Shown piece after piece: positions 22,132 through 45,219 of a DNA stretch of 46,630 bases; position 1 is the stretch's first letter, and every line of letters starts with the position of its first letter. The notes beneath the pieces are model-generated. The model did not search any database. It was not told where the DNA came from and was given only the letters and a program-made list of their open reading frames with translations. The DNA lies in NCBI GenBank assembly GCA_038851075.1, contig JAWCLG010000007.1, forward strand, positions 1 to 46,630, in the 5' to 3' direction. The position numbers and the translations under genes were made by a program. This DNA is from Candidatus Hadarchaeales archaeon (GTDB lineage: Archaea > Hadarchaeota > Hadarchaeia > Hadarchaeales > Hadarchaeaceae).

Positions 22132-22263
22132 AGCATCTCCCGGCTGCTTTTGCGAGGGAGCGTTTTATATCTGGAAAAAATCTCCACAGAAAACTTGGAT
22201 TGACGCCGCCCGCAATCAATGAAAAATGCTTAAATATGGCAGGACCAAAAATAGATGATAAAC

Positions 22264-27879: not shown

Positions 27880-28482
27880 ATGCACGGATTCACCGGGACT
27901 GTCGTCGGGATAAAATGCGCTGACGGCGTTGTGCTGGCATCAGACACCAGGGGCACAGGATACTACCTCGTGCTCAGCAAGAGCCTCAAAAAGGTCTTCA
28001 GAATAGACGAGAGAATAGGCGCGGCGATTGCGGGGAACTCGGGAGATATACAAACCCTGATAGGACTTTTGAGAGCCGAAGCCAATCTATACCGCATAAA
28101 TCACGGCAGGGCCATATCGACAAAGAGCATCGCAAAAATAGCGTCCAACATCCTTCACGATTACAGAATTTTTCCGTACCTGGCTGACGGAATACTTGGA
28201 GGACTTGACGATGACGGACCGCGTCTCTATTTCATCGACCCCGTGGGAGGAAAACTTGACGAAAATAAATTTGCCAGTGCGGGCAGCGGGTCAACAATAG
28301 CATACGGTGTGCTGGAGCAGCAGTATCGGGGCAACATTCGAGTCGAGGAAGGCGTGAAGCTTGCCGAATCTGCGATAAAGACCGCAATAGAGAGAGACGC
28401 AGCAACTGGTGACAGGGTTGTTGTTGCAGTGATAGATAAGAAAGGTTACAGGGAAATTGAAAATGCGGGGCAGAAAAACTAG
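27880..28482 (+). CDS. psmB: Proteasome subunit beta (atypical N-terminus)
   Basis: VGIKCADGVVLASDTR, KKVFRID, DPVGG, SAGSGS, ERDAATG. Confidence 0.88.
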   Translation: MHGFTGTVVGIKCADGVVLASDTRGTGYYLVLSKSLKKVFRIDERIGAAIAGNSGDIQTLIGLLRAEANLYRINHGRAISTKSIAKIASNILHDYRIFPYLADGILGGLDDDGPRLYFIDPVGGKLDENKFASAGSGSTIAYGVLEQQYRGNIRVEEGVKLAESAIKTAIERDAATGDRVVVAVIDKKGYREIENAGQKN

Positions 28483-29567
28483 AATATCGCCTTCTCGGTT
28501 TTACCGTCGAACACGTGAATTTTATCCGGGTCAAAGCGAACCATCACAGCCTTTCCAACCGCGGGCCTGATATTTGGAGGAGTTTTTGCTATTATCTTGC
28601 CCTTACCGGCTTTTAGATGGACGTAATTATCGGCACCCACCAGCTCAACCAGCTCTACCTTTGCGCTTATCCCCGCTCCTCGGATGCCATCAATCTTCAC
28701 ATCCTCAGGTCTAACTCCGATGATCACCTCAGAACCCGTCGCGCAGCTTTTTACCAGTCTTCCCTGTTTTCTATCGAGACCAACAGTGAACTCTCCAGCG
28801 TCGAGAAATATTTTTCCAGCCCGCTCCTTAACGGAACACTTTATGAAATTTATTGGAGGGGTGCCCACGAACCCCGCCACAAATGTGTCCACCGGGTGGG
28901 AGTATATCTCCTCTGGGGGGCCAACCTGTTTGACCGAACCGGCGTGCATGACCACCACCTTATCTCCCATGGTCATCGCCTCAAGCTGATCGTGAGTAAC
29001 ATGAATGGTCGTTGTCTTCAGTTCTCGCTGGAGATTTTTCAACTCTGCGCGCATGACCACCCTCATTTTTGCATCTATGTTTGACAGTGGCTCATCCCAG
29101 AGGAACACACTGGGCTCGCGCACTATGGCCCTACCCAGAGCCACGCGCTGCCTCTGCCCCCCGCTGAGCGCCGCGGGTCTTCGGCCCAGCAGCTTTTCGA
29201 TTTCAAGAAGCTCGGCGGCTTTTTTGATCCTTCTTGCGATCTCAGGTTCTTTATAGCCCATATTTCTGAGGCCGAAAGCCATGTTGTCATAGACGGTCAT
29301 ATGAGGATAAAGCGCATAATCCTGAAAAACCATGGCTATCTTCCTGTCCTTTATCGAGAGGTCGTTGACCCTCTGTTTTCCGAAGTAGATGTCTCCGCTG
29401 TCCGGAGTCTCAAGTCCGGCTATGATCCTCAGCGTAGTCGTTTTGCCACACCCGCTCGGCCCGACAAAAACCGCTAGTTCTTTATCCCTCACCTCTAGAC
29501 TAACGTTGTTTACAGCCACAGTGTCCCCAAATTTCTTCGTGATATTCTTAAGGACTACCTTGACCAT
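28479..29567 (-). CDS. Sugar ABC transporter ATP-binding subunit (MalK/MsmX type)
   Basis: GPSGCGKTT, VFQDYALYPHMTV, LSGGQRQR, DEPLSN, VTHDQ, C-terminal TOBE region. Confidence 0.93.
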   Translation of the reverse strand: MVKVVLKNITKKFGDTVAVNNVSLEVRDKELAVFVGPSGCGKTTTLRIIAGLETPDSGDIYFGKQRVNDLSIKDRKIAMVFQDYALYPHMTVYDNMAFGLRNMGYKEPEIARRIKKAAELLEIEKLLGRRPAALSGGQRQRVALGRAIVREPSVFLWDEPLSNIDAKMRVVMRAELKNLQRELKTTTIHVTHDQLEAMTMGDKVVVMHAGSVKQVGPPEEIYSHPVDTFVAGFVGTPPINFIKCSVKERAGKIFLDAGEFTVGLDRKQGRLVKSCATGSEVIIGVRPEDVKIDGIRGAGISAKVELVELVGADNYVHLKAGKGKIIAKTPPNIRPAVGKAVMVRFDPDKIHVFDGKTEKAIF

Positions 29568-29666
29568 GTCGCTCTTTCATCATTCTAACCGCATTGTTAA
29601 AAAGGTTGGTCCTTCTAATCCGCGAAAAGAATAAAACCGATGACAGAGATATAATTACAGAGATGC

Positions 29667-31592
29667 ATGAAATTCAAGGATGACGGTTTCATTGAATCAG
29701 GGAGTATCTGGGTTGAAAGGTTGCGAGGTAAAATCGGAATTGCTATTATACTGATATGCTGCGTGGTGGCTGGGGCGGTTGCAATTGCTCTGATCCCCGC
29801 GCAAAAGGTCCCAAGTGCCCCAAGTAACGGTGGGGGCGGCGGAAATCAACAGGGGGACCATCTGGACCAGCTAAACGACTGGACCCAAATCTACTCATTT
29901 GAAGTACTCTGGGAGAACATGAAAGACCCATATGAAACCACTATCACCTGGGATGACCTCAGCGAAGAAGATAAGGAATTCCTCGACAACGTTCAAAAAA
30001 ACGCTTTCTGGTATTTCTGGTACGAGGCCGACCCCGACACCGGACTGGTTCAGGACAGGGCCACAAACGAAGAGGTCTCAAGCACGGCTGCGGTGGGCTT
30101 TGGGCTGTCAGCAATATGCATCGCAGAAAGCAGGGGATGGATCACATATGAGGAAGCATACGAAAGAGTTCTCAACACTCTCAAGAGCTTTGACCCTTCT
30201 AACCCACTCGTCCGCGGATCACACGGCTTCTTCTATCACTGGATAAACACGAAAACTGGCAGACGTGAATGGAATTCTGAGATATCTCTGATCGACACTT
30301 CTCTGCTGGTAGCAGGCGTACTTCATGCTGGAAAGCACTTCGCGGGAACTGAAATAGAAACTCTGGCAGATCAGATATATCGAGCGGTTGAATGGGACTG
30401 GATGAGCACAGGGAACCTGCTGAAGATAACCTCTGACGGCGGCGGCAAATCAGGATATGATGAATACATAATCTGCTATATCCTGGCTCTTGGCTCACCG
30501 ACCCATCCCGTCCCTGAGAGATATTGGGACGCCTGGGCCCGGACATATAAGTGGTACGAATACAACGGAACCAGATTTTTAACCGCCGGCGGCAGAACCA
30601 TGTTGGCCTATCTGTACCAGTTCCCCGCAGCGTGGATTGACTTCAGGGGAGTTCATGACAAATACGCGAACTACTGGCTTGAGAGCATCGCTGCCCTCAA
30701 GGTGAACCGGGATTTCTGTCTTGATGAAAGCAACAGGAACGGTTGGGACCCCCTCTGGGGCTGGACTGCATGCGATGGAAAGGACGGATATCTTGGATTC
30801 AGGGACTATTTTGAAGGCACTGTCGCGCCCTCTGCGGTTGCCGCATCGCTCCCGTTCATCCCAGAGGACGCACTGGCCATGCTGAAGTACATGTATCAGA
30901 GATACGGAGACAGGATCTGGGGAGAATACGGATTTGTGAACTCGTTTAATCCTGTACTGAACTGGTACGACAACGACTACATCGGAATCGACCAAGGGAA
31001 CCTGGTGCTGATGATCGAAGCTTTCAGAAGTGGAAATGTCTGGAAAGATTTTATGTCGATACCCTACATCGTTGAAGGGATGAGAAAAGCGGGCTTCGTT
31101 TCGGGATATCACACCGACAACCAGGGATTCATAAAGGACTGGCTGCTGATCGGACCGTTCGGAACCGGTGAAAGCGAGGCCTTTGAAACAGACTTTATCG
31201 GAGAAACTTCAATAGGTTTCCCGAGGGCTGGTGAAACGATTGAAGGTAAAACGTGGATTGGGATGCATTATCCTTATGGGGACTCTTCATCCAGATTCAT
31301 AAATCTGTACAACGTTTTTATCCCAAGGGAAAACACCGGGGCATATGCTTATGCTTTGATAAACTCTGCCGAGGAGAAACAAGTTACCCTGAGAGTGGGC
31401 AGCGATGACTCAATCAAAGTCTGGATAAACGATGAACTCGTTCACGAAAATCACGCGCTTAGATCCGCCACAAAAGATCAGGACGTGATAGAGGGAATCA
31501 GGCTCCAAGCAGGGTTCAACAAGATACTCGTTAAAGTGTGCAATGAATCCGGAGGCTGGGGATTCTATCTGAGGTTTACTGACAAAACTTAA
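29667..31592 (+). CDS. Membrane-anchored GH144-type (glucoamylase-family, beta-1,2-glucanase clan) hydrolase with C-terminal beta-sandwich domain
   Basis: N-terminal TM; YFW...TGLVQDR, STAAVGFGL, HGFFYHW, SEISLIDT, YILALGSPTHP, WIDFRG, WGWTACDG, GTVAP, WGEYGF, YIGIDQG; C-terminal WLLIGPF...GSDDSIKVWIN. Start may be TTG at 29721. Confidence 0.8.
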   Translation: MKFKDDGFIESGSIWVERLRGKIGIAIILICCVVAGAVAIALIPAQKVPSAPSNGGGGGNQQGDHLDQLNDWTQIYSFEVLWENMKDPYETTITWDDLSEEDKEFLDNVQKNAFWYFWYEADPDTGLVQDRATNEEVSSTAAVGFGLSAICIAESRGWITYEEAYERVLNTLKSFDPSNPLVRGSHGFFYHWINTKTGRREWNSEISLIDTSLLVAGVLHAGKHFAGTEIETLADQIYRAVEWDWMSTGNLLKITSDGGGKSGYDEYIICYILALGSPTHPVPERYWDAWARTYKWYEYNGTRFLTAGGRTMLAYLYQFPAAWIDFRGVHDKYANYWLESIAALKVNRDFCLDESNRNGWDPLWGWTACDGKDGYLGFRDYFEGTVAPSAVAASLPFIPEDALAMLKYMYQRYGDRIWGEYGFVNSFNPVLNWYDNDYIGIDQGNLVLMIEAFRSGNVWKDFMSIPYIVEGMRKAGFVSGYHTDNQGFIKDWLLIGPFGTGESEAFETDFIGETSIGFPRAGETIEGKTWIGMHYPYGDSSSRFINLYNVFIPRENTGAYAYALINSAEEKQVTLRVGSDDSIKVWINDELVHENHALRSATKDQDVIEGIRLQAGFNKILVKVCNESGGWGFYLRFTDKT

Positions 31593-31609
31593 AAACAATA
31601 AAAAGAATA

Positions 31610-31628
31610 ACCCCGCCTCATGCGGGGT
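31610..31628 (-). terminator. Stem-loop terminator between convergent genes
   Basis: ACCCCGC-CTCAT-GCGGGGT perfect 7-bp stem, followed on the minus strand by TATTCTTTTTATTGTTTTT. Confidence 0.6.
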
Positions 31629-31633
31629 GCCTA

Positions 31634-32458
31634 TCAGGAAAATGCGATCCAGTCCACGTACAAAGTTCCGTTGACCGGCCCCTCAAACACCAAATTTATC
31701 TGTCTTAGGTCCTTGAGATTCAACCCTTCCGGGCCCACTGTGGTCGCTGGATTAAATTCGGTAAGGGGTATCACTATTTTTGTCCATCCCGTGTTTGCCT
31801 CTCTGTAAACTGATCCGCAGTGGGAACTCGTCGCGTTGTGTACTGCCGCTGATGTGAGGCTAGATATGTCAGCAGGAGCTACACCGAACAGAATTTGCGA
31901 AAGTTCGCTGGGAGTCTTGCCGTATTTCTCTACAGCAAGTGTCTCTCCCGATTCAGTGAAAACCTGCTCCGCCTTCGTCGCATCTGAGTGCTGCAGTGTG
32001 TCCTGAAGCTCCACCTTGAACCTCAGTTTCTTGTCCGCCTTCACTGCCATGTGAAGTTCCGTGTACGAGCTGACATCTCTGCCGCCACCTATCCTGACCA
32101 GTATCGGGTCCGTCGATATATCACCCGGAACTGCAAAGCTCCAGTATCCGCTCCAGGCCGCTGGCGGGACGTCTATGTTGAACCTGATTGCATATGAATC
32201 TCCGTCCACCACATCAAACCCGTAATAGTCTGCCCCACCGTCCGGAGGATAACCCCCCATCATTCCAGCGCTTGTTCCTGGAAAGCTTCCCAGACTCGCA
32301 TCGTCGAAGTCGTCGTAAATCAGTCCGCCTGTCGGTTTGGCAATAGGTGCGGATCCACCGCCCATGGACATCAATGCCAATGCCAGAACTGCCACAATTA
32401 CCACAACTATGACCACAGCCAACAGAATCTTTGTCTTTCCACCACCATTTCGCTCCAT
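31634..32458 (-). CDS. Membrane-anchored CBM11-like protein with a large loop insertion
   Basis: N-terminal TM; YDDFDD, WSGYW, DVSSY, FKVELQD, WTKIVIPL, LRQINLVF, LYVDWIAF. Confidence 0.7.
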   Translation of the reverse strand: MERNGGGKTKILLAVVIVVVIVAVLALALMSMGGGSAPIAKPTGGLIYDDFDDASLGSFPGTSAGMMGGYPPDGGADYYGFDVVDGDSYAIRFNIDVPPAAWSGYWSFAVPGDISTDPILVRIGGGRDVSSYTELHMAVKADKKLRFKVELQDTLQHSDATKAEQVFTESGETLAVEKYGKTPSELSQILFGVAPADISSLTSAAVHNATSSHCGSVYREANTGWTKIVIPLTEFNPATTVGPEGLNLKDLRQINLVFEGPVNGTLYVDWIAFS

Positions 32459-32642
32459 TTACCTCCCTAAAGATAAGTAGGCTCCAGCCTTTTTTAAATG
32501 TTTTTAAAAATTTTGAGAAAAAGCGCCTTCTGGCTGTATTTTAATAGAGTTTCGCCTTTTCTGTAAAACTAAAAAAGAGAGATATGGTCAGGTTTTCTCA
32601 AAAAAAGTTATAACTGTCGTACGTGAAAAGACATAAGGTTGC

Positions 32643-35558
32643 ATGCCCCGTAAAAGAAAGGGAGAACGCCGGAAGAAGAAAAAAGAAAACATCATGAGGA
32701 GACTTGTATTGTTTGTCCCTGCGGTTGTCGCAGTGATTATTCTGGCTGCTGTGCTAACCAGTTCATCGCCCAGCAAGAAGATGTGGATAACCGTTCACGA
32801 CCCATGCGGAGATGACTATGGGCCCGGAACATACACATACCCGGTGGACTACACTTTCAGAACAGAAAACTTCGGGAAGAGAGAATCATTTGACATAACT
32901 AAGTTTTCGACATATGAGGATGGAGACCAGCTGGTTCTGGAATATCGCCTTTCTCAGTCCATCGCCGACCCGTGGGGCGGGGAGCAAACGAAAAAGTATG
33001 ACATAAGCCTGCAGGCAATCGATGCCTACTTAGACACAGGGATATCTGGAGGATACACGGATCTCATATTCGATCAGACGATACCTGGTAACGTCGCAAA
33101 AAATCCGAACGGTACACTGAACGCTGTAATAGAGGCTGAATCCGACTGGGAATACGCTATCCGAGCGCAGGGATGGGAAGTAAGCATCTTTACCAACCCA
33201 ACTGGAGAAAACGGCGGGAAAAAATCGATGGGCAGGATGGAGGTGGACAAAGAGTCCGGCATCATCAGGATATACGCTCCAAAGAGTCTTATTGGGACGC
33301 CAGATTCAAGCTGGAAGATAACAACTTTTATTTATGGCATAGATTACGGGAACGCCAGGGTTGTCAACTCTCACGCATCCGGGTGGAATTTTGGAGGCGG
33401 AAGAGATGACAGCTGTGACCCCAACATCATCGATATTATCGTCCCTGAGGGGCATACTCAGGAAAGCGTTCTCGATTTCACGAGTTCTCCAGTTGTGCTC
33501 AAGGCGGTGCCATTCGGATCCGGGGAGTACACATCGAGCAAGGGGGCTGTTTCAGTCAGTCCGCAGCCCACCGGTCTTGATCCTTCCGAGATTCCACCGA
33601 CCGAAAACCTGCTGGACGAGATAGTCAGAAGAGGGGTAATGTACTTCTGGGACTGGGCAGACAATGAAACTGGTCTGATCAGAGACACGACAAAATATGC
33701 CTATGACGAGTTTCCCGCGAGTACGGCCTCCACCGGATTCGGTCTGACCGCCCTCATAATCGGGGCCCACAGGGGGTGGCTCGATAACAGCGCCGTTTAC
33801 AACAGGGTTCTCACAACGCTCCGAAGTTTTCATGATAACACGGATGATAATCCGAACGATCTGGTGGTGGATGGAGAAAACGGTCTCTTTTATCACTTCA
33901 TCAGGATGTCAACCGGAGACAGGTGGACTCCGTCATCGATGGGCAAACCTGGAGAATCATCAGAACTGTCAACCATTGATACGGCCCTCTTTCTAGCAGG
34001 AGCGATCACCGCCGGAGAATATTACAAAGGCACAGAAGTCGAGGAGATCGCCAGAGAGATATATGAATCGGCCGACTGGAGATGGATGCTGTCCCCTGAA
34101 AACCAGTTATACCACGGATGGACTCCGGAAAGAGGATATCTTCCGAATAAATGGGAATATTACTCCGAAGCAATGATCTTATATCTGCTGGCCATCGGAT
34201 CGCCAACCTATCCTATACCTGCGGAATGCTGGCATGCATGGGAGAGGCCGCTCAACTACGTCGGGACGACAAAGACGTACATAATGTCTCCTCCAGAAAG
34301 CCTGTTCACCTACCAGTACTCTCATGCGTGGATTGACTTCAGGGAAAAACATGACCACTATGCGAACTACTGGCAGAACTCGGTCTACGCCTGTCAGAAC
34401 AACCGTAATTTTGTCATATGGGTTGCGATAAACGGCCCGACTGACAGATACCTTGCATTTGACGATGATATTTGGGGTCTCACCGCGGGGGACGCTCCGT
34501 GCACAAAAACGGGATACAAAAACTACGGTGCAACCCTGGGAGGATATGATGGTACAATACATCCTTACGGGATGGTCGCTTCATTGCCGTTTGTACCTGA
34601 GCTGTCGCTGCGAGGCATAAACGCTCTGCTGGAAAGATATGGAAGGGAAATATGGAGAGAATACGGTTTCACAAGCGGATTCAATCCGGATGTGGACTGG
34701 TATTCACACGAGTATACCGGCATTGACGTAGGGATACAAGTGATTATGGTGCAGAACTACCTCGACAACTTTGTGTGGAATCTATTCATGAACAATGAGT
34801 ACATACAGAGGGCGATGACCCTTGCTGGATTCCAAAGCGGTGCGCTTGAAAATAAGAGGGCCATAACCGAAGAATATGAGAGGGAGTACACAGTGCCAAC
34901 TGAAACGAAAGAAGCAACCGCAAGAAGGGCTATGGTCGCGATCAACATTGATGGAAGATTGAACGACTGGAGCGGGGCAGAGTGGTATGCTGTACCGCCA
35001 AATAACAAAGTTATGGGGACCATACGCTTCGATATCGAAAATGTAAGCAGCGAGTTCTCAGCGATTTGGGACGATGAACATCTATATCTGGCATGCAACG
35101 TCACAGACACAATAGTTGTGTCAAACATAGAACCCGACGATGTCCACAGCCTGTACAGAAGTGACAGTGTCGAGTTCTACCTGCAGCCTGACAGATTCAT
35201 CTCAACCGCGACTGGAATATTCAAAATAGCGGTTATACCATTTGACACCTCCGGAAACCCACAGGCCTGCAGGCACGAGGACATGAACCCCGGTCCGATA
35301 TCGAGCGTCGCGCCAGGAATAAAAATAGGATCCAGCAGAACCTCATCTGGATATATAATTGAAGTTGCTATACCCTGGAGCTACTTACAGATAAACCCTG
35401 CATCCGGAGTAAAAATGGGGATAAACCACACCGTTCACAACACGTACTTCTCAAACGCAGAGCCAGGAGAGTATGTTAGGACTGCCATGCTCTCATGGGT
35501 TCGTGTCTCTGTGGTGTGGTCAAGACCGACAACATGGGGGGTTTTAACTCTTGAATGA
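32643..35558 (+). CDS. Multidomain GH144-type hydrolase: DOMON/glucodextranase-C-like + catalytic + CBM9-like domains
   Basis: DPCGDDYGPGTYTYP; STASTGFGL, GLFYHF, ELSTIDT, YSEAMILYLLAIGSP, LFTYQYSHAWIDFR, WGLTAGD, YTGIDVG; C-terminal IDGRLNDW...WDDEHLYLA..VTD...DSVEFY...GYIIEVAIPW. Confidence 0.82.
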   Translation: MPRKRKGERRKKKKENIMRRLVLFVPAVVAVIILAAVLTSSSPSKKMWITVHDPCGDDYGPGTYTYPVDYTFRTENFGKRESFDITKFSTYEDGDQLVLEYRLSQSIADPWGGEQTKKYDISLQAIDAYLDTGISGGYTDLIFDQTIPGNVAKNPNGTLNAVIEAESDWEYAIRAQGWEVSIFTNPTGENGGKKSMGRMEVDKESGIIRIYAPKSLIGTPDSSWKITTFIYGIDYGNARVVNSHASGWNFGGGRDDSCDPNIIDIIVPEGHTQESVLDFTSSPVVLKAVPFGSGEYTSSKGAVSVSPQPTGLDPSEIPPTENLLDEIVRRGVMYFWDWADNETGLIRDTTKYAYDEFPASTASTGFGLTALIIGAHRGWLDNSAVYNRVLTTLRSFHDNTDDNPNDLVVDGENGLFYHFIRMSTGDRWTPSSMGKPGESSELSTIDTALFLAGAITAGEYYKGTEVEEIAREIYESADWRWMLSPENQLYHGWTPERGYLPNKWEYYSEAMILYLLAIGSPTYPIPAECWHAWERPLNYVGTTKTYIMSPPESLFTYQYSHAWIDFREKHDHYANYWQNSVYACQNNRNFVIWVAINGPTDRYLAFDDDIWGLTAGDAPCTKTGYKNYGATLGGYDGTIHPYGMVASLPFVPELSLRGINALLERYGREIWREYGFTSGFNPDVDWYSHEYTGIDVGIQVIMVQNYLDNFVWNLFMNNEYIQRAMTLAGFQSGALENKRAITEEYEREYTVPTETKEATARRAMVAINIDGRLNDWSGAEWYAVPPNNKVMGTIRFDIENVSSEFSAIWDDEHLYLACNVTDTIVVSNIEPDDVHSLYRSDSVEFYLQPDRFISTATGIFKIAVIPFDTSGNPQACRHEDMNPGPISSVAPGIKIGSSRTSSGYIIEVAIPWSYLQINPASGVKMGINHTVHNTYFSNAEPGEYVRTAMLSWVRVSVVWSRPTTWGVLTLE

Positions 35559-35610
35559 CAAGACAACTTTTTTAAACACGTGGATTCCTAAAAACATGGG
35601 TGGACCGCAG

Positions 35611-36897
35611 ATGAATGGAAACTGCGGAAAAATTCCTGCAGCAATGGTCGCGGTGGCGGTTGTAGCTGTGGTGATAATAGCCGCCGTGGCTCTGATTCTG
35701 CCCGGCACGACACAGAGGGATAACACGACGTCTTCCGGAGGAATAGAAATCTACCACTATTGGACATCCGGGGTTGACAGGGATGCCATCAATGCTCTTG
35801 TTAGGTCGTTTCAGGACAATTACAACATCAACGTGAGCTCGAGCGGATTCACCGGATATCAGGACAAGATAAGTCTGGTTATCGATACCTCACCCCCAGA
35901 CGTGGCGGCACACTGGTTCAACAAATACTATAAAGACTATGCCTCGAGAGGTTCACTGCTCGACTTGACCGAATTCTGGGAAAACAACTGTCAAACGTAC
36001 CCCGAAAAAATAAAGGACCTGATAACAGTGAACGGAAAGATCTACGGCGTTCCTCTGGATATCCACTGGGAGGGAGGAGTGGTTTTGTACAACCTTAGAG
36101 TTTTAAGCAGCAAGGGCATCAACGTTCCAAATACCTGGGACGAATTTCAGGATATGCTGGACGAACTGAAGAGCAAAGGGGTCGAACGTCCGATAGCAAT
36201 GGGATTTGCCGATGCTTGGCCGAGAGACATGGTATTCACCGCAATTCTGGCCGCAACCGGAGGGGCAGAGTTCTATAAGGATCTCGCTGCAGGGAACGCG
36301 AGATGGACCGACAGCCGGGTCGTGGAAGCCTTCCAGATATACCAAGAGTGGTGTCAGAAAGGATACTTCGACCAGTCTGCCCCAGGCCTTGACTGGCAGG
36401 ATGCCTTAAACACGTTCATCTCAGGCGATACCGCTGTATATTTCATGGGGGACTGGGCCTGCGCTGCCCTCAAAAAGATAGGATGGCAGCCGAACGTCGA
36501 CTATTATGCGGATTTCATACCAACGAAAACAGGAGCGACTCCAATTGCCATACCGGACCTCGAGGGGTTCGTTGTCCCGGAGAGATCATCGAAAAAATCG
36601 CTCGCTCTGGAATTCCTCAAGTTCATATCAAGGGCGGAATCTCAGGTGACCTTTGCATCAATAAAAGGAAGCACAGCGCCCCACCCGAACGCGGACATCA
36701 ATCAGTATGGAGACAGCATACAGGTCAACATGTGGAACAAGGCTGAAGGAAGGGAATGGGCACTTCCCATAATGTGGTATTTCTCGCAAAACGTACGAAA
36801 CGAATTCGGTGACGGGATGTATGCCATATGGGACAATCCAGCAGGGGTCGACATTTCTGAGATCTGCGCCTCAATAGACACGGCTACACGGAGCTGA
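35611..36897 (+). CDS. Sugar ABC transporter solute-binding protein
   Basis: N-terminal TM anchor, IEIYHYWTSG, GKIYGVPL, VPNTWDEF, FMGDW. Confidence 0.88.
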   Translation: MNGNCGKIPAAMVAVAVVAVVIIAAVALILPGTTQRDNTTSSGGIEIYHYWTSGVDRDAINALVRSFQDNYNINVSSSGFTGYQDKISLVIDTSPPDVAAHWFNKYYKDYASRGSLLDLTEFWENNCQTYPEKIKDLITVNGKIYGVPLDIHWEGGVVLYNLRVLSSKGINVPNTWDEFQDMLDELKSKGVERPIAMGFADAWPRDMVFTAILAATGGAEFYKDLAAGNARWTDSRVVEAFQIYQEWCQKGYFDQSAPGLDWQDALNTFISGDTAVYFMGDWACAALKKIGWQPNVDYYADFIPTKTGATPIAIPDLEGFVVPERSSKKSLALEFLKFISRAESQVTFASIKGSTAPHPNADINQYGDSIQVNMWNKAEGREWALPIMWYFSQNVRNEFGDGMYAIWDNPAGVDISEICASIDTATRS

Positions 36898-36982
36898 TGT
36901 GTTTTGAACTCCCCATTCAGAGGGAGCACAGCATTGTTCCTGCGAAAACTGTTTTTTTATCTGAACCTGCAGGGGTGAAAAC

Positions 36983-38035
36983 GTGAGAAACGATGAGAAA
37001 ACCGCGTATATTTTTCTTGCTATTCCTCTCGTCTGCGTCGGCTTCATATTGTTCACAATTTTTTACCTGATTGGTTCCAGCTTTTTCACGAACGAAGGCC
37101 TCGGGTTCCAGAACTATGTCAGACTTTTCACATTGGACCAGTATTTCTGGCCCGCCCTCTGGCACAACGTCTTCTGGATGATCTGGGCCGTTCTGGTTCC
37201 GATAGGCATTGGGCTGATTTTCGCAACGTTGCTCAGCCGCAACATAAGGGGGGAAAACATCTTCAAAGGAATAATCTACTTTCCGGCCCTGCTCGCAGGC
37301 GCGACGATAGGCGTCATATGGAAATGGTTCTATCTTCCGAGAAACGGGGTGATAAACTCAATCCTGAAGGGATTCGGGCTGATGGGACTCGGCAATCCGA
37401 CCACCGAGCTGTGGATAAACAACTCATCACCGCCGGTTCCTCTTCTCACGATAATCTCGCTGCCGATCTTCTTCGTATCAATTCTGCTGATTGCCCTCAC
37501 ATTTTCTCCGAGAATATCGAGGTTGAAGCTGGGTCTCGTTTTGGGAATCGGAGGAATCGCATTTCCCATATGGCTCTTCCTATCCGGTGCGGTTTCCACC
37601 TCCCTGGTGTCCATCCTCATAGCTTCAAGCTGGGCAGGTTCAGCTGTTTCAATGGTGATGTTCCTCGCAGGAATGCAGGCGATACCCAAGAGCCACATAG
37701 AAGCAGCGAAGGTTGACGGTGCAAGTGAATGGCAGGTGCTCCGTCACGTTGTGCTTCCGGCACTGAAGCCGGTGATGGTCACTCTGATAATACTCTCTGC
37801 CATAAGCTCCATGAAAGCATTTGATCTTGTGTACACTCTTGCCGGACAGGAGGGCGGCCCCGGACACCATGCCGCAGATGTGCTTGCGCTTTACACCTTC
37901 CGAACCCTGAAATCGAGCCAAGACTTGGGCGGGTACAGCTATGCGAGCACGATAGGGTTCATAGGAATACTCGTATCCTTGGTTCCAGTCATTCTCTACA
38001 TGATAATGCTGAGGAGAAAGGAGGAGGATACATGA
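36983..38035 (+). CDS. Sugar ABC transporter permease (MalF/UgpA type)
   Basis: GFQNY, EAA loop LAGMQAIPKSHIEAAKVDGASEWQ. Confidence 0.9.
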   Translation: MRNDEKTAYIFLAIPLVCVGFILFTIFYLIGSSFFTNEGLGFQNYVRLFTLDQYFWPALWHNVFWMIWAVLVPIGIGLIFATLLSRNIRGENIFKGIIYFPALLAGATIGVIWKWFYLPRNGVINSILKGFGLMGLGNPTTELWINNSSPPVPLLTIISLPIFFVSILLIALTFSPRISRLKLGLVLGIGGIAFPIWLFLSGAVSTSLVSILIASSWAGSAVSMVMFLAGMQAIPKSHIEAAKVDGASEWQVLRHVVLPALKPVMVTLIILSAISSMKAFDLVYTLAGQEGGPGHHAADVLALYTFRTLKSSQDLGGYSYASTIGFIGILVSLVPVILYMIMLRRKEEDT

Positions 38036-38865
38036 CGCTTCAAAGAACGATTCTTTACATCGCAATCATCCTACTATGCGTGGTGTGGATAGTCCCTCTG
38101 GTTACTGTTGTATTCGCCTCATTCAAACCCGAGGCCGAAATACTTGGAGGAAATCCGCTCTCACCTCCCTCCAGCATCTACCTTGGCAATTATTCTGAAA
38201 GTCTGACGGAGGGGAGTCCTCCGCTCGTGAACGCCTTCGTGAACACGCTGATAATAACTGTCTTTGCGGTCCTTGGGTCAGTCTTCATAGGAGCACTTGC
38301 GGCATATCCGCTGTCGCGCCTTAAATTCAGGGGCAGCAACATGATCTACATGATCTTGATATTCGGTATGATGTTTCCGCACCAGCTTGTCATGGTGCCT
38401 CTATATCAGACGGCTAATTTTCTGGGACTGTACGGATCGGTTACGGGTAACTTCATCGCAGTTATCCTTGCTCACATAATTTTCGGAGTACCATTCTGCG
38501 CATTCATCCTCGCCGGATTTTTCAGAAACATACCCCGGTCACTTCAGGACGCGGCAATGATGGACGGATGTTCTCATTTTTCGTTCTTTTACAAAATCAT
38601 CCTGCGACTGGCTCTGCCGGCTCTGGCGGTTATTTCGCTTCTGCAGTTCACAGGGATATACAACGATATGCTTTGGGCGCTGGTATTGATGAGGGACTCA
38701 AGCACTTACCCGGTAGCCACAACACTGGCAAGTCTTTCCACGACTTCAGGGACCCCATACGGACTCCTATGCGCTGCTGGTTTTCTTGCAGCACTGCCAA
38801 CTCTGCTGCTGTTCGTTTTCCTCCAGAAATATTTCATAAAAGGGCTCGCCGCTGTTGGGAGGTAA
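38032..38865 (+). CDS. Sugar ABC transporter permease (MalG type)
   Basis: AAYPLSRLKFRG, IPRSLQDAAMMDG, FLQKYFIKGL; ATGA overlap. Confidence 0.9.
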   Translation: MTLQRTILYIAIILLCVVWIVPLVTVVFASFKPEAEILGGNPLSPPSSIYLGNYSESLTEGSPPLVNAFVNTLIITVFAVLGSVFIGALAAYPLSRLKFRGSNMIYMILIFGMMFPHQLVMVPLYQTANFLGLYGSVTGNFIAVILAHIIFGVPFCAFILAGFFRNIPRSLQDAAMMDGCSHFSFFYKIILRLALPALAVISLLQFTGIYNDMLWALVLMRDSSTYPVATTLASLSTTSGTPYGLLCAAGFLAALPTLLLFVFLQKYFIKGLAAVGR

Positions 38866-38866
38866 A

Positions 38867-41245
38867 TCATCCCATTATTACCTTTACTCTGTGGACACCT
38901 TTCTTCTTCGGTTGAGGAATAATCTTGCCAGCCACAGGTTTTCCGTCCAGCAATATCTTCACCACACCTTTTGAGACGTGATTCGGGTTCTCCACATCTA
39001 TCTCGTACCTGATCCCCCTGAAAGTTCTCACCATCTTAAATCCCGGCCAGTCACTAGGGATGCACGGATCCACCAGCAGCCCTTTTTCAACAGGCCTGAT
39101 CCCCAGAATCCATTCTGTTGATATTTTGAAGAGCCATGCGGCTGATCCGGTGTACCATGTCCAGCTGCCCTTGCCGTAAAAGGCCGACTGCGGGCCATCA
39201 GTGTTTCCCGGAAGCACATAAGGCTCTCCCTGATAAACATCCGGATTGGTTCCTCTGAGCGGCGGGCAGATCTTTCTGAAAACGCTATATGCCCTGTCAC
39301 CGTCTCCCATCTTGCAATACGCGAGAATACACCATGTAGCTGCATGCGTGTAGACTCCACCGTTCTCTCGCATCCCAGGAGCGTACCTTGTCAGGTATCC
39401 AATATTCTCATCAGGTACAGAATACCCAGGATAGAGAAGCAGCGGTCCATAATCCTTCATCAGGTTTTTCTCCACTGACTCCATCGCTTTCATGGCTCTC
39501 TCCGCCGGGGCTGTTTCGTTTATGATTGACCAAGTCTGGGCATTCAGGTATATCTTTCCCTCTCTGCATTTTTTACTCCCGATGAGGTCCCCGTTGTCCT
39601 TGGTCGCCCTCCAGTACCACGAACCATCCCACCCGTACCTGTTGATGCTTTTCTTCAACGCCTCTGCTTTCTTAATGTAGACGTTTGCCGTTTTTCCGTC
39701 CCCCATTTTTTTGCAGACTTTTGAAAATCTCAGGAGAACCCCGCAGAGGAAGTGAGCCAGCCATATTGACTCACCCTTCCATTTCAGGCCGACTGAACTC
39801 AGGCCATCATTCCAGTCCCCCGAGCCTATCAGCGGGAGACCGCGGGGACTCATTCTGGAAAGCGCCAGGTCGATAGCCCGTTTGCAGTGCATGTAAAGCG
39901 ATTCTGAGGGGGCATCCACGTACCGGACTCGCTGTTTCAGAATGCTCCAGTCTTCGGTCTCCTCAAGATAAAACGTCAGAACATAGGGCAGCCATAGCAT
40001 GTTGTCGCTGATATTCGTTCTCATTCCGAGCTCGGTGATCGGGTGCCACCAGTGATACACCGTTCCGTCCTTAAACTGATGCTCCGCATGCAATAAAATC
40101 TGCTTTCTTGCAAGGTCGGGTCTCAGAGGTATCAGCAGGAGACTGCTCTGCAGCTGATCTCTGAAACCGTAGGCGCCAGAACACTGATAGTATCCAGTTC
40201 TCGCCCAGAGATGCCCAGATACGGCCTGATATTTGAGCCAGTAATTATTCATTAGATTAAAACCAGGATCAGGAGTGCTAACTGTCACCCCGGACAGGAA
40301 CTCCTGCCAGAATTTTTTTACATCAAAAAACGCCTTATTCACATTTTTCTCATCACTGTACCTCTTCAGCAGGCGCTTGGCTTCGGCTGCCGGTGCCGCT
40401 CCAACTGTAAATATCAGAACCTTTTCCTCTCCAGCCTCCAGAAGTACCTTCACATGAAGACTTGCGATACTGTCATAAAATTTTCCAACGGTCCTGCTGA
40501 GGGTACCTCTGACAACGGAGGCGGGCCTGGATATGCCTGAAGATCTGCCAAAAAACGAAAGTTTGTCTCCCTCATACCCTGCAGGCTCGACGTTCACACC
40601 GTGAAATCCTTCAAGGGCTACCTCTGGTCTACCAGTGCTTATATATGAGGGAACCGGAAGCGGTCTCTTCTTAGCGAAAATAGCGTGTGCCTCGCTGTCA
40701 TAGGCCGTCTCTATAAATGTGCGGTGAAACTCCCTGTGAGTGTCAGTCCCGTTTCCAAGGCACCACTCGAAGTACGTAAAAACACTCAGCTCCATTTTAC
40801 CGGACGTGGTGTTCTTCAACGTGACCTTCCATATCTCGAGAGGCTCTCCCGGTGGGATAAAAACGAGCATTCGTGATAAAAGTCCGTTCTTTCTGCTTTC
40901 TATTTCAGTGTACCCGATTCCGTGTTTCACTTCATATTTATCGAATTCTGGGCAGCAGGGTTTCCACGTGAGCGACCACACTTCTCCTGTTCGATCATCT
41001 CTGATGTACACGTACTTTCCGTATTCGTCTCTGACTAGGTCCTGATGCCAGATATTCACCCTTGCGAGAGCTGAATTTCCCCTCCAGCTGAAACCGCTGC
41101 CCGCCTGGGAGATGACCAGCCCGTAATCACCGTTGCATATAACGTTGACCCATGGTGCAGGGGTATCAGGCCTCATGATTATGAACTCATCTCCGGATTC
41201 TGAAAATTTTCCATACTTGCTCTCGAAAAGCCCCTTTCCTGCCAT
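38867..41245 (-). CDS. GH94 glycoside phosphorylase (cytoplasmic)
   Basis: TPAPWVNVI, YQCSGAYGFRDQLQ, HWWHP, GDWNDG (catalytic Asp), RENGGVYTHA, WYTGSAAW; no signal peptide. Confidence 0.92.
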   Translation of the reverse strand: MAGKGLFESKYGKFSESGDEFIIMRPDTPAPWVNVICNGDYGLVISQAGSGFSWRGNSALARVNIWHQDLVRDEYGKYVYIRDDRTGEVWSLTWKPCCPEFDKYEVKHGIGYTEIESRKNGLLSRMLVFIPPGEPLEIWKVTLKNTTSGKMELSVFTYFEWCLGNGTDTHREFHRTFIETAYDSEAHAIFAKKRPLPVPSYISTGRPEVALEGFHGVNVEPAGYEGDKLSFFGRSSGISRPASVVRGTLSRTVGKFYDSIASLHVKVLLEAGEEKVLIFTVGAAPAAEAKRLLKRYSDEKNVNKAFFDVKKFWQEFLSGVTVSTPDPGFNLMNNYWLKYQAVSGHLWARTGYYQCSGAYGFRDQLQSSLLLIPLRPDLARKQILLHAEHQFKDGTVYHWWHPITELGMRTNISDNMLWLPYVLTFYLEETEDWSILKQRVRYVDAPSESLYMHCKRAIDLALSRMSPRGLPLIGSGDWNDGLSSVGLKWKGESIWLAHFLCGVLLRFSKVCKKMGDGKTANVYIKKAEALKKSINRYGWDGSWYWRATKDNGDLIGSKKCREGKIYLNAQTWSIINETAPAERAMKAMESVEKNLMKDYGPLLLYPGYSVPDENIGYLTRYAPGMRENGGVYTHAATWCILAYCKMGDGDRAYSVFRKICPPLRGTNPDVYQGEPYVLPGNTDGPQSAFYGKGSWTWYTGSAAWLFKISTEWILGIRPVEKGLLVDPCIPSDWPGFKMVRTFRGIRYEIDVENPNHVSKGVVKILLDGKPVAGKIIPQPKKKGVHRVKVIMG

Positions 41246-41423
41246 CTCATCCCCGTCTTTTCCCACTGAACTAACTCGTTATTTAAGACTTTTGAGTAAC
41301 ATGGGGGATTAAAAAAAATACGAAATCTTTAAGTTTCTCAAGATTTTTGCAATAGATCCAAAGCGTGAGCTGAGGTAAAGTTAAAAACCGAGTGGAGGAT
41401 ATTAAACCGCAAAAGGTGATGAT

Positions 41424-42611
41424 ATGCCCCAAGCACCCGATATGGAGATATATCATTTCTGGACAGGGCACGAAGAGGCCCCAGTAAATGCCCTCCTCAA
41501 TGCCTTTGAAAAAAAATATGGGATGAAGATAGGCAGGAACGCAATGGAATGGAGCGTTTACTCAATGGTAACCAAAGCCATGCTGATCGGGGGAAACGCT
41601 CCGGACTTGATGGTTTACGACATCGGGCAGAGGATACGCGAATCGGCTAGAATAGGCGAGCTGAGCCGCCTGGACGATGTATGGGGCGCCGAATTCTCAA
41701 AATTATATCCGGAGTGGGTGAAGGACGCCTGCCGGGATGGGGAAAACACCTATGGGGTGCCCATCAAGCGATTCACTTTTGTGGTTTGGTATCTCAAGGA
41801 CGTGTTCCAAAAGTACCGCATATCTCCTCCGGAAACATGGGACGATTTTATTGATATCTGCAAAAAATTCGAAAAAGCAGGCCTTCCGCCCATGGTTGCG
41901 AGTGACTGGGAAATATCGATGTGGTTCGAGAACATTCTGGCCCGCACGGTCGGACAGAAGTTCTACAACAGGCTCATGAACGGGGATGAGAAATGGACCG
42001 ACCCTAAAGTGATCGATGCCTACGAAACTCTACAGGAGATGGCCCTCAACTACATGATACCATATCCGTTCACCAACAGTTTCAAAGAATCGTGGGAAAT
42101 CCTGAACAAACGTGAAGCGGGGATGCAGCTTCAGGGTGACTGGGTCAACGGAATGTGGAGGCGCAGGTACAGGTATGCTCCAGGGAAAAACTATGATTTC
42201 TTCCCGGTACCCCCCATCGACAAAAGAATAGGTCAGATAATGGTCGCAGGCGGTAACGCGTGGGTTATACCAGAAAAGGCCAAAAACGCAGAAAACGCTA
42301 GGAAATTTTTAAGGTTTGCAGGATCGGTCGAAGGACAGCGCATACTCGTAAGGAAGGGGATGGGTTTGGCCGGGAGTAACTATGTGGGAACCGAAAACTA
42401 CGATGCTATCTCAAGGAGGCTAATCGAATACCTGGACAGATTCCCCACGGTCCTTCAGATGGACGCCATTTTGCCCTACAGCGTTTCAAGCGTTGAGAAG
42501 CTACAGCAGATGCAAATTGTGCTTGGGCAAAAAACAAAAAAGACTGAAATCAAAAGGCTTCTATCCGAAATCGACACCGCGACGGATAAGATAAAGCACG
42601 CCAGAGAGTGA
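41424..42611 (+). CDS. Sugar-binding protein homologue lacking a signal peptide
   Basis: EIYHFWTG, YGVP, PETWDDF, LQGDW. In-frame TAA at 41403 and SD AGGTGAT support the start; no hydrophobic N-terminus. Confidence 0.8.
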   Translation: MPQAPDMEIYHFWTGHEEAPVNALLNAFEKKYGMKIGRNAMEWSVYSMVTKAMLIGGNAPDLMVYDIGQRIRESARIGELSRLDDVWGAEFSKLYPEWVKDACRDGENTYGVPIKRFTFVVWYLKDVFQKYRISPPETWDDFIDICKKFEKAGLPPMVASDWEISMWFENILARTVGQKFYNRLMNGDEKWTDPKVIDAYETLQEMALNYMIPYPFTNSFKESWEILNKREAGMQLQGDWVNGMWRRRYRYAPGKNYDFFPVPPIDKRIGQIMVAGGNAWVIPEKAKNAENARKFLRFAGSVEGQRILVRKGMGLAGSNYVGTENYDAISRRLIEYLDRFPTVLQMDAILPYSVSSVEKLQQMQIVLGQKTKKTEIKRLLSEIDTATDKIKHARE

Positions 42612-43498: not shown

Positions 43499-45217
43499 AT
43501 GAAGAAAAACAACAAAATCCTGGCCCTGGAAATTGCGTTCCTGTGCGGAATGCTGCTGGCAACTGTATCAACTGTGGGAGTTGTCGGCGCTTCCGGAGAT
43601 CTCAACTTCTGCGATTTCGAAACCCCTGGCTTCACCAGCTTGGGCGGCGGAAGGGGGGCAATGGAATCAACTACTGGCCTCATCACCGAAAACGACGTTT
43701 CTGGCGGAGTCAGCGGTAAGGCTCTCAAGCTCACATATAATTTCTCCAGCACACAGTGGTGCGGTTACTGGATGTTTTTCAAAGCAGATCAAACTGAGTA
43801 TAATGTCAGCGGATACACTCACATTAAGATGTGGGTGAAGGGAGCTTCTGGAAACGAGATATTCAAGCTCGAGCTGCAGGACACCGATGGCGGAGGAAGC
43901 TACAAGACCGGGATATCGGTGCCAAGCACATCATGGACTGAGATAAGCATCTCGCTATCGGACTTCACCAAGATACCGTGGTACCAGGAACCTGCAAATC
44001 TGTCCAAACTGAGACAGATAAACATAGTATTTGATGTTGCACCCAGGAACAGCACGGTTTACTTTGACGAAATCCGGTTTATCTCCGGTTCATCACCTCC
44101 ACCTCCTACTCCATCTGGGAACGAGCTGATCGTGGATGATTTCAACGACGGGAGCGGGCCAAACAACCTGGGTGGAGCATGTGGAGCTATGGGGGACTCT
44201 GGCACCGAAATAAGTGAGAACTATGTCACAGGCGCATATGAGGGACAATATGCCCTCAGGCTCACGTATGATCGCAAAACAAGCTGGGTCGGGTACTGGA
44301 CATTTATGAAACCAGACCAGAGTGGCTACGATGTAAGCGGATACGAGAATCTGAAAATCGCCGTCAAGGGGGCCTCAGCTACCGAGATGAAGATAGAGCT
44401 TGAAGATGAGTCGGGCGGAGCGAGCTACAAGTACATCAATGTGCCCGCCTCTAACTGGTCGGAGGTCACCATACCGCTATCATCCTTCCAGAAAATCCCG
44501 TGGAAGGAATCGGCCGCGGATCTCTCAGATCTGAAGCAGATCAATCTGGTCTTTGACAAGAGCCCCAGCACGAACACGGTGTATGTCGATATAATAAGGT
44601 TCGTGTCCTCAAGCTCACAGGGTGGGACCACACTTGTCTATGTGTCTCCGGCGAGCCAGCAGGTGGTCGGTGACAACGCATTCAGCGTAGATATAAAAGT
44701 CACACCGGGTACTGCAATCTCTGGAATGCAGGTGAGCCTGAAATTCGACCCATCGCTGCTGAGCGTGACAAGCGTGGCTGAAGGCGATCTGCTGTCTCAG
44801 GGCGGCTCGACTTACTTCGGCGTTATAAAAATCGACAACGAAAACGGAATAGTCACCGGGATTTACGGCGTGGTGCTCGGCTCCGGAACCGTGTCAACTC
44901 CGGGAACTTTTGCAAAAATATACATGAAGGGCAAGATGGTCGAAGGAACATCGCAGCTTCTGCTGGAAAACGTGATTGTCGGAGACGGCCAGGGCAACTC
45001 TGTCAATGTCTCGGTTGAGAACGGTTCCGTTACACTGCTGCCTTACCCTGATTGGGATGTGAACATGGACGGACACGTCAACGTGCTGGACATGATAGTG
45101 GTTATCCAGAACTGGGGCAAAACCGGAGCTCCGCACTGGATCAGATCGGATGTAAACCGCGATGGAAAAGTAAACGTGCTCGACATGATCCTCATAGGAA
45201 AGAACTGGACGGGATAG
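43499..45217 (+). CDS. Secreted scaffoldin-like protein: CBM11-like x2 + cohesin + C-terminal dockerin
   Basis: Signal peptide; two WxGYW/ELxD CBM repeats joined by SSPPPPTPS; cohesin pattern VYVSP..FSVDIKV..GMQVSLKFDPSLLSVTSVAEGDLL..GTFAKI..GTSQLLL..NGSVT; paired Ca loops DVNMDGHVNVLD and DVNRDGKVNVLD. Confidence 0.82.
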   Translation: MKKNNKILALEIAFLCGMLLATVSTVGVVGASGDLNFCDFETPGFTSLGGGRGAMESTTGLITENDVSGGVSGKALKLTYNFSSTQWCGYWMFFKADQTEYNVSGYTHIKMWVKGASGNEIFKLELQDTDGGGSYKTGISVPSTSWTEISISLSDFTKIPWYQEPANLSKLRQINIVFDVAPRNSTVYFDEIRFISGSSPPPPTPSGNELIVDDFNDGSGPNNLGGACGAMGDSGTEISENYVTGAYEGQYALRLTYDRKTSWVGYWTFMKPDQSGYDVSGYENLKIAVKGASATEMKIELEDESGGASYKYINVPASNWSEVTIPLSSFQKIPWKESAADLSDLKQINLVFDKSPSTNTVYVDIIRFVSSSSQGGTTLVYVSPASQQVVGDNAFSVDIKVTPGTAISGMQVSLKFDPSLLSVTSVAEGDLLSQGGSTYFGVIKIDNENGIVTGIYGVVLGSGTVSTPGTFAKIYMKGKMVEGTSQLLLENVIVGDGQGNSVNVSVENGSVTLLPYPDWDVNMDGHVNVLDMIVVIQNWGKTGAPHWIRSDVNRDGKVNVLDMILIGKNWTG

Positions 45218-45219
45218 GT

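Follow-up and report, generated by a model that had tools for sequence, protein, structure and literature searches.

β-1,2-Glucans, which bacteria produce, are associated with symbiosis, infection, and osmoadaptation. In the papers cited here, the systems described for their breakdown are bacterial or fungal, and the characterized enzymes of glycoside hydrolase (GH) family 144 are β-1,2-glucanases together with one sophorohydrolase (PMC12102758, PMC8861115, and PMC13731917; papers are cited by PMC number). Here we analyze a stretch of DNA of 46,630 nucleotides, referred to as the window, which comprises positions 1 to 46,630 of contig JAWCLG010000007.1 (assembly GCA_038851075.1). It carries eight genes in a divergent and convergent arrangement (positions 28479 to 41266) (Table 1) that, judged from their sequences, probably form a β-1,2-glucan utilization cassette of a Hadarchaeota-like archaeon. 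Comparable clusters have already been published for Ignavibacterium and Chloroflexus, and what is new here is the archaeal member, which would extend the pathway to a third domain of life. An earlier reading of the sequence alone (the sequence-only reading) had known of no characterized archaeal pathway of this kind, and our literature searches agree: for archaeal GH144 or β-1,2-glucan use, including the glycoside hydrolases and CAZymes of Hadarchaeota, they returned nothing relevant (PMC11094006 and PMC7922503).

The SGL cluster of Ignavibacterium album (IALB_1177 to IALB_1187) resembles the archaeal cassette in its phosphorylase: the GH94 enzyme of an I. album metagenome-assembled genome (locus L015), which we infer to be the uncharacterized IALB_1177, is 48% identical to that of the window and groups with the same stand-alone enzymes. 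Unlike the window, the I. album cluster includes a GH35 β-1,2-glucosyltransferase and a TonB-dependent outer-membrane step, and the paper that describes it lists a putative GH3 β-glucosidase in the cluster in its introduction and states in its closing section that there is no β-glucosidase homologue (PMC8861115). The archaeal cassette is without GH35, TonB step, and GH3, its enzymes are predicted to be anchored by N-terminal helices, and its binding protein is not a close relative. The cluster of Chloroflexus aurantiacus (Chy400_4165 to Chy400_4178), a thermophile that comes, like the window's host, from hot springs, contains two GH144 enzymes, two ATP-binding cassette (ABC) systems, and a putative GH94, and it differs from the window in having GH3 and GH35 partners (PMC13731917). 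Its protein Chy400_4166 has been shown to bind cyclic β-1,2-glucan (PMC13731917), whereas no relative so named was among the best 60 solved relatives of the window's binding protein.

In Listeria innocua (lin1839 to lin1843), as is proposed here, sophoro-oligosaccharides are imported by an ABC system and split by a cytoplasmic GH94 phosphorylase, which saves ATP; that locus encodes the phosphorylase SOGP, a GH3 β-glucosidase, and the binding protein SO-BP, and it has no GH144 gene (PMC8861115 and PMC13731917). SOGP is monomeric, and its N-terminal sandwich domain is duplicated (PMC5309861), whereas the window GH94 has 799 amino acids (aa) and one sandwich domain. Listeria SOGP stops at sophorose, which is split by GH3, and no GH3 was found in the window's genome. 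SOGPs are about 1,080 to 1,110 aa long. A further comparison is with the cyclic glucan synthase Cgs, whose phosphorylase domain (8rf9) is the best-scoring solved relative of the window GH94 and shares with it active-site loop motifs and clade. In Cgs, a membrane protein of ~2,800 aa, this domain lies at the C-terminal end and trims the chain during synthesis, and phosphate shortens the glucan made; the window GH94, unlike Cgs, stands alone in a catabolic cassette. This stand-alone GH94 is the most interesting part of the system.

In the pathway that we propose, the two surface-anchored GH144 homologues (GH144a and GH144b) would cut linear or cyclic β-1,2-glucan released by bacteria into sophoro-oligosaccharides, assisted by the CBM9 and Glucodextran_C modules and by a separate anchored CBM11/30-like protein (CBM, carbohydrate-binding module). 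An anchored binding protein would then pass the sophoro-oligosaccharides to a CUT1 ABC importer made of two permeases and a MalK-type ATPase, the cytoplasmic stand-alone Cgs-like GH94 would remove glucose units as α-glucose 1-phosphate, and phosphoglucomutase, encoded elsewhere in the genome, would feed the latter into glycolysis with no ATP spent. Two PGM/PMM genes and one ROK kinase gene are indeed found elsewhere in the genome. Surface cutting, import, and phosphorolysis of bacterial β-1,2-glucan is what the sequence-only reading had proposed, and family membership, GH94 type, co-occurrence, and trees make it the best-supported reading. All eight components that it listed are present where it placed them, as open reading frames (ORFs) with Pfam or profile matches; the end that it gave, 41245, is an internal ATG of the GH94 gene (the start of the 792-aa form in the database), and the full frame opens at a GTG at 41266. 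The sequences directly establish to which families the proteins belong, that the catalytic residues are intact, that synteny is conserved, that the genes co-occur, and that they nest inside bacterial diversity, and they give a predicted topology; the substrate, what the binding protein binds, the chain-length range of the phosphorylase, and the fate of sophorose are inferred. Topology was predicted by a Kyte-Doolittle hydrophobicity scan, which gave a single N-terminal hydrophobic helix in each of GH144a, GH144b, the CBM-like protein, and the binding protein and none in the GH94 protein or the ATPase, so that the division into surface-anchored and cytoplasmic components holds as a prediction.

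Whether the two hydrolases belong to GH144 proper or to a sister family of clan GH-S was decided by matches to solved structures, and both fall in GH144, as the sequence-only reading had supposed. GH144a matched 4gl3 (1.5e-63), XcSGL (8xul, 8.4e-55), CpSGL (5gzh, 3.8e-49), and also the sophorohydrolase BDI_3064 (5z06, 1.5e-38), and GH144b matched XcSGL (7.9e-65). The sole structure of the clan outside GH144 to be matched was PgSGL3 (8xuk), with only 46.8 and 32.3 bits for the two hydrolases, and no other clan structure was matched at an E value of ≤0.01 in this search. GH144a consists of an anchor (residues ~22 to 45), a GH144 (α/α)6 domain (~95 to 485), and a C-terminal domain of ~155 aa that has no assignment; GH144b has an N-terminal anchor, a Glucodextran_C (S-layer-like) module, a GH144 catalytic domain (316 to 736), and a C-terminal CBM9. 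In characterized enzymes, the general acid is CpSGL E211 (XcSGL E239) and the most plausible base is CpSGL E142, and two further residues define the clan, namely, XcSGL F286 (a Phe near the nucleophilic water) and XcSGL Y367, equivalent to CpSGL Y330 (a Tyr at subsite −3) (PMC12102758). By counting positions in the printed pairwise alignments, we mapped the general acid to E266, the candidate base to D210, and the subsite −3 Tyr to Y375 in GH144a; the corresponding residues of GH144b are E509, D446, and Y628, with F555 as the clan Phe. XcSGL likewise has Asp at the candidate-base position in the same alignments. Both hydrolases thus mapped appear to be GH144 members with an intact catalytic set, GH144a with one conservative oddity. 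A third hadarchaeal GH144 paralogue, an open frame of ~1,390 aa, occurs in two other genomes (G010:C1:14452-15078, locus L009, and G062:C55:13978-14604, locus L094); it is absent from the window's genome (G000) and groups with Bacteroidota-type sequences.

The window GH94 has the supersandwich and (α/α)6 domains of its family (PF06165 and PF17167), the catalytic Asp in a DWND motif, and FRD at subsite −1. DWND aligns with D480 to D483 of Clostridium thermocellum cellobiose phosphorylase (CtCBP), as do FRD and the His of ENGGVYTH with their CtCBP counterparts, and the DWND, FRD, and ENGGVYTH-His columns are invariant in 38 clade members. Two sites in cellobiose phosphorylase (CBP) are informative about acceptor binding: R362 of C. 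gilvus CBP (CgCBP), like R343 of the chitobiose phosphorylase VpChBP, fills the space that is subsite +2 in SOGP (PMC5309861), and E649 of C. uda CBP (CuCBP) governs tolerance at the anomeric position of the acceptor in subsite +1 (PMC7896129). In its alignment to CtCBP, the window GH94 is without the three-residue insert that carries the CBP Arg, and by offset count it has Tyr at the position of CBP Glu649. We take E649 of CuCBP and CgCBP to be E636 of CtCBP, from that offset count and from the CgCBP numbering. A YYQxSGxYGFRDQLQ-type loop without Arg, together with G-Y at the Glu649 position, was shared by the window GH94, all 39 stand-alone relatives, and all 16 synthase domains in the motif table, whereas all 12 CBP-like paralogue-type sequences there differed at both sites. 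By its sequence, the window GH94 is not a canonical cellobiose phosphorylase, and it is not an SOGP of the Listeria type either. Two candidate markers were dropped: bit scores against solved structures as a discriminator between CBP and the synthase domain (473 versus 482 bits) and the long loop after DWND as a sign of CBP, the CBP-like paralogue clade having a short loop too. The type was accordingly decided from active-site loops, tree, and genomic context and not from bit scores.

The stand-alone enzymes form a clade of proteins of ~790 to 840 aa, 43 to 72% identical to the window GH94, from Hadarchaeales, Omnitrophota, Planctomycetota, Ignavibacteriota, Chloroflexota, Fidelibacterota, and Acidobacteriota. 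Next in similarity within the genome collection are proteins (loci L023 to L089) that are 35 to 40% identical and lie in open frames of 1,079 to 3,149 aa, most of them >2,500 aa and the shorter ones truncated where the contig or the 10-kb flank stops; these are giant synthase-type fusions. In a quick IQ-TREE tree of 42 rows, the synthase domains fell into one clade with the stand-alone enzymes, its base unresolved; the CBP-like paralogue clade, the sole outgroup, provided the root, and such a three-group tree alone cannot establish the stand-alone clade and the synthase domains as sisters. The hadarchaeal GH94 proteins were nested in a 22-row, Omnitrophota-rich group (SH-aLRT 99), with which FastTree agrees, and the window GH94 lay among Omnitrophota and Planctomycetota sequences. 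Loops and trees thus place the window enzyme, as far as sequence can, in a stand-alone clade related to the Cgs phosphorylase domain (the IALB_1177 type).

The genome of the window has a second GH94 (contig C3 of G000; 821 aa, 36% identical to the first), which scores 486 bits against CtCBP and 359 against the synthase domain and, on that comparison, appears to be CBP/ChBP-like; its closest relatives are Omnitrophota, Margulisiibacteriota, and Saganbacteria proteins. It lies in a second glycan cluster (L096, G000:C3:74000-93999) with two GH2_C/GH72-like TIM-barrel (clan GH-A-like) proteins, three PKD-domain proteins, a GH26-like protein, and an HTH-lectin regulator, and it probably serves another glycan. 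With this separate paralogue present, the window GH94 is not the cell's only candidate for β-1,4 disaccharides.

The genomic context of the clade links it to GH144. A PF10091-type ORF (the Pfam family of the two hydrolases) was found in the stored flank of 8 of 14 bacterial stand-alone GH94 loci (L012, L013, L014, L016, L017, L018, L021, and L042). L016, L017, and L018 also have ABC permeases, with a binding protein in L016 and L017 and an ATPase in L018, and the genes of L013 run in the order binding protein, GH94, PF10091 (83.5 bits), and ROK. A separate strong PF10091-type ORF flanks 5 of the 67 synthase-type loci (L025, L031, L047, L072, and L089), and in L039, L054, and L061 the PF10091 model scores 40 to 44 bits on the giant fusion ORF itself. 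The stand-alone GH94 clade is linked to GH144 genes across several bacterial phyla. Within the archaeal phylum, PF10091 was found in 5 of 66 genomes (G000, G010, G022, G042, and G062, from three genera of one family), and a window-type GH94 (64 to 67% identity) was found in exactly the same five; the remaining genomes have only GH94 genes at 34 to 41% identity. GH144 and the window-type GH94 thus co-occur perfectly within the phylum.

The CBM-like protein has a single direct Pfam match, to CIA30, which at 23 bits lies under the 24-bit cutoff, and it has 29 relatives among the 1.84 billion representatives searched. We scanned 10 of these relatives: CBM30 and/or CBM_11 modules were over the cutoff in 8, a PF10091 catalytic domain was fused in 2 (P0368 and P0376), and cohesin was present in 3, 2 of which had dockerin too. 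CBM_11 or CIA30 domains are also listed for several GH144a homologues, and orthologues of the CBM-like protein are found at the same place in G010 and G022. Because it is fused to PF10091 in other organisms, the CBM11/30-like module type appears to travel with GH144. Elsewhere in the window are a further small CBM_11/CIA30/CBM30-like protein of 201 aa, encoded 6 kb upstream of the cassette; an archaeal protein with two CBM11-like modules, a cohesin, and a type I dockerin; and an ORF with a cohesin match that overlaps the gene for the dockerin protein. The CBM-cohesin-dockerin layout recurs in relatives of the cassette's CBM-like protein, and these proteins hint at cellulosome-like surface assemblies.

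The transport genes comprise all parts of a CUT1 importer: an SBP_bac_1 protein, two BPD_transp_1 permeases, and a MalK-type ATPase with a C-terminal regulatory domain. The ATPase scores 453 bits on NF008653 and 318 bits on the archaeal GlcV model, permease 1 (eight hydrophobic segments) scores 78 bits on the archaeal GlcT model, and permease 2 (six hydrophobic segments) scores 150.5 bits on the archaeal GlcU model. No ligand for the binding protein could be obtained from its homology to solved relatives or to the binding proteins of bacterial loci. A second family 1 solute-binding-protein homologue (SBP2, 395 aa) lies just beyond the GH94 gene. It has no N-terminal anchor or signal, no start further upstream in frame, and no permease genes of its own, and its neighbor in both G010 and G001 is a ParA/MinD-like gene, an arrangement that survives deletion of the cassette. 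SBP2 is not part of the cassette and could be a cytoplasmic sugar sensor.

Several observations weigh against the β-1,2-glucan reading. CBM9 and CBM11 modules are better known from enzymes acting on β-1,4-glucan, mixed-linkage glucan, or xylan. GH144a has Tyr (Y315) where the clan-defining Phe stands, a conservative change. The best solved relative of the binding protein is the Thermus glucose-binding protein (2b3b, 3.7e-31), and the binding protein of the window scores just 36 to 42 bits against the binding proteins of bacterial GH94/GH144 loci. The bit scores of the GH94 protein are nearly equal for the main stretch of Cgs (8rf9, 482) and for CtCBP (3qde, 473), no SOGP chain was among the 20 solved sequences matched at an E value of ≤1e-5, and the protein, with one PF06165 domain, is without the extra N-terminal sandwich domain (Ndom1) of the two characterized SOGPs. 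In 6 of the 14 bacterial stand-alone loci, no GH144 gene was found in the stored flank; in four of these (L011, L019, L020, and L022) the record stops at the GH94 gene or no more than ~1 kb from it, and in L010 and L015 the stored locus extends 1.4 and 2.1 kb downstream of it. Finally, no GH1, GH3, or GH35 was found in the genome, which is 88% complete, and DUF608 reached only 18.7 bits.

The main rival explanation is that the cassette targets another β-glucan (cellulose derived, mixed linkage, or β-1,3), its PF10091 enzymes having a specificity new to GH144 and its GH94 being of the cellobiose or cellodextrin type. In its favor, the window GH94 aligns end to end with CtCBP, close GH94 homologues are labeled “cellobiose phosphorylase” by one source (the names are automatic), and the CBM9 of GH144b and the three CBM11/CIA30-like proteins of the window point the same way. 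We nevertheless consider this explanation unlikely: the window GH94 has neither the Arg loop (R362 of CgCBP) nor the Glu649 of CBPs, the structures of laminaribiose and cellodextrin phosphorylases score only 48 to 58 bits against it, and the genome has the separate CBP/ChBP-like GH94, clustered with clan GH-A-like hydrolases. Moreover, modules of the CBM11/30 type are fused to PF10091 in other organisms, and in several phyla GH144 genes accompany the GH94 clade.

With no GH1, GH3, or GH35 found, the proposed pathway is without a sophorose-splitting step unless GH94 itself performs it. The sequence-only reading had called this a complete candidate pathway; the eight components that it listed are all present, but no enzyme for sophorose was found in the 88%-complete genome. 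Characterized SOGPs need a degree of polymerization of at least 3 and leave sophorose (PMC5309861). If the window GH94 behaves like them, one step is missing; if it takes sophorose too, the pathway closes and the activity is new. A tentative reading, on balance doubtful, is that the stand-alone Cgs-like GH94 is a new β-1,2-glucan phosphorylase, a CBP-like dimer and not a monomeric SOGP, that degrades sophoro-oligosaccharides fully, sophorose included, and that hot-spring Hadarchaeota feed in part on glucans shed by neighboring bacteria. Were this true, the archaeon would need no β-glucosidase, cyclic or periplasmic glucans shed by its neighbors would feed it in part in a cross-domain food link that is new, and the same activity would account for the hundreds of homologues from Omnitrophota and other phyla that have no assignment.

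The absence of a β-glucosidase from the genes found is also what would be seen if the substrate were a β-1,2-linked or unusual glycan other than free bacterial glucan, such as a glucosylated envelope polymer or a glycoside, or if the system served remodeling, with GH94 working in the synthetic direction. GH94 reactions are reversible (PMC5309861), the I. album cluster has a β-1,2-glucosyltransferase that makes sophorosides (PMC8861115), and GH144b carries the S-layer-like Glucodextran_C module. Surface hydrolases, a binding-protein importer, and a cytoplasmic phosphorylase make up a catabolic layout, however, with no glycosyltransferase gene in the cassette and no GH35 found in the genome, and we regard this alternative as quite improbable.

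The cassette lies on an archaeal, Hadarchaeota-like contig of a genome of 1.0 Mb in 29 contigs. Directly upstream is a proteasome beta gene (223.1 bits on the archaeal model TIGR03634; cutoff, 224), the end of which overlaps the ATPase gene by 4 bases, and further upstream on the same contig are a geranylgeranylglycerol-phosphate geranylgeranyltransferase-like UbiA gene and a FlaI-like ATPase gene. The closest named homologues of GH94 and GH144a come from Hadarchaeales, “Hadesarchaea,” “Thermoprotei archaeon,” and MSBL1 records, and positions 31600 to 41300 occur only in hot-spring metagenome DNA runs of one study, with no RNA runs listed. G010 carries all eight genes, ordered as in the window and with the same two genes downstream; G022, G042, and G062 have partial copies, and the left junction in G022 is the same as that of the window. 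The shared order in G010 and the partial copies elsewhere show that the gene grouping is not due to chance.

The genome G001, from the same genus as the window's, has neither PF10091 nor a window-type GH94 that we could find. Its flanking genes (HAD, FdrA-like, transglutaminase-like, and proteasome beta genes and then SBP2 and ParA-like genes) are contiguous except for ~700 bases, and in this gap (L098, G001:C3, ~5175 to 5625) are collinear remnants of the 3′ end of the ATPase gene (window positions 28509 to 28670) and the 5′ end of the GH94 gene (40997 to 41161), with a tblastx group E value of 4.7e-13 and 52 bases at 79% identity by blastn. From these remnants we conclude that ~12.3 kb was deleted in G001. 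The cassette was thus at this site before the split of the three genera, and it is dispensable and gained or lost as one unit. These data also speak to whether the cassette is bacterial DNA that was mis-binned or misassembled into an archaeal genome. The closest named nonarchaeal relatives are all bacterial, and the cassette differs somewhat from the genome in GC content (0.497 versus 0.523); yet archaeal genes flank it on the same contig, one of them overlapping its first gene, and it is found at this very site in further genomes from the family and has left a deletion scar in a genome of the same genus, so that an artifact of this kind is extremely improbable.

The sequence-only reading had called for phylogeny against bacterial homologues, and the trees place the archaeal GH144 and GH94 genes inside bacterial diversity. 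In a FastTree tree of 97 catalytic domains, GH144a and GH144b lie far apart: GH144a groups with “Thermoprotei archaeon,” MSBL1, and hadarchaeal sequences, with Bacteroidales-type sequences as the sister group, whereas the five hadarchaeal GH144b rows form a clade whose sister group (99) consists of Firmicutes, Thermotogota, and Anaerolineae proteins, many with the same PF10091-plus-CBM9 architecture. Since these placements differ and the permeases score best on the archaeal GlcT and GlcU models, the cassette looks as if it was assembled from bacterial genes of different sources and an archaeal-type transporter and not copied whole. Transfer would have run from bacteria to archaea, given the breadth of these genes in Bacteria and their presence in only 5 of the 66 genomes here. 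Such a cassette would suggest that hot-spring archaea are linked trophically to bacteria that produce glucan, and cyclic glucan synthase genes were found in many phyla in the genome collection. It also offers two probably thermostable GH144 enzymes, and it provides a specific function to test for a large uncharacterized GH94 clade that could serve the making of sophoro-oligosaccharides.

Table 1. Genes of the cassette and other features of the window (positions are those of the window; E values unless bits are given)
Feature	Position	Strand	Matches or basis
MalK/UgpC-type ABC ATPase, 362 aa, putative cytoplasmic energizer of the importer	28479-29567	-	ABC_tran 4.2e-34, OB_MalK 2.6e-11, TOBE_2 4.1e-14
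GH144a, 641 aa	29667-31592	+	PF10091 1.6e-58
Anchored CBM11/CBM30/CIA30-like protein, 274 aa, putative surface glucan binder	31634-32458	-	CIA30 23 bits; domains of homologues
GH144b, 971 aa	32643-35558	+	Glucodextran_C 3e-37, PF10091 1.4e-58, CBM9_1 3.5e-18
CUT1-type substrate-binding protein, 448 aa from TTG	35551-36897	+	SBP_bac_1 2.4e-31
ABC permease 1, 350 aa	36983-38035	+	BPD_transp_1 1.8e-22
ABC permease 2, 277 aa	38032-38865	+	BPD_transp_1 4.7e-17
GH94 phosphorylase, 799 aa from GTG (792 aa from ATG at 41245)	38867-41266	-	PF17167 2.2e-114, PF06165 8.3e-77
TTTTGAGAAA inverted pair 1	32511-32520 / 32594-32603
TTTTGAGAAA inverted pair 2	41290-41299 / 41334-41343
SBP2	41424-42611	+	Family 1 solute-binding-protein homologue
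Small CBM-like protein	22255-22860	+	CBM_11/CIA30/CBM30-like
Dockerin protein	43499-45217	+	Two CBM11-like modules, cohesin, type I dockerin
ORF with cohesin match	45052-45936	+	Cohesin
Partial tRNA match	17406-17465	-	Rfam 29.7 bits

Two divergent promoter regions of the cassette each contain the motif TTTTGAGAAA (0 to 1 mismatch) as an inverted pair. Over the entire window, the motif shows no enrichment (10 matches versus 4.67 ± 2.17 expected, with 5 of 100 shuffles reaching 10), and a general repeat search gave short two-copy matches only; the inverted pairs are possible operators. Well upstream of the cassette, a partial tRNA match covers model positions 9 to 63 and lies just above the gathering score of 29. 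ARAGORN called no tRNA there, and the match may represent an intron-bearing or split archaeal tRNA.

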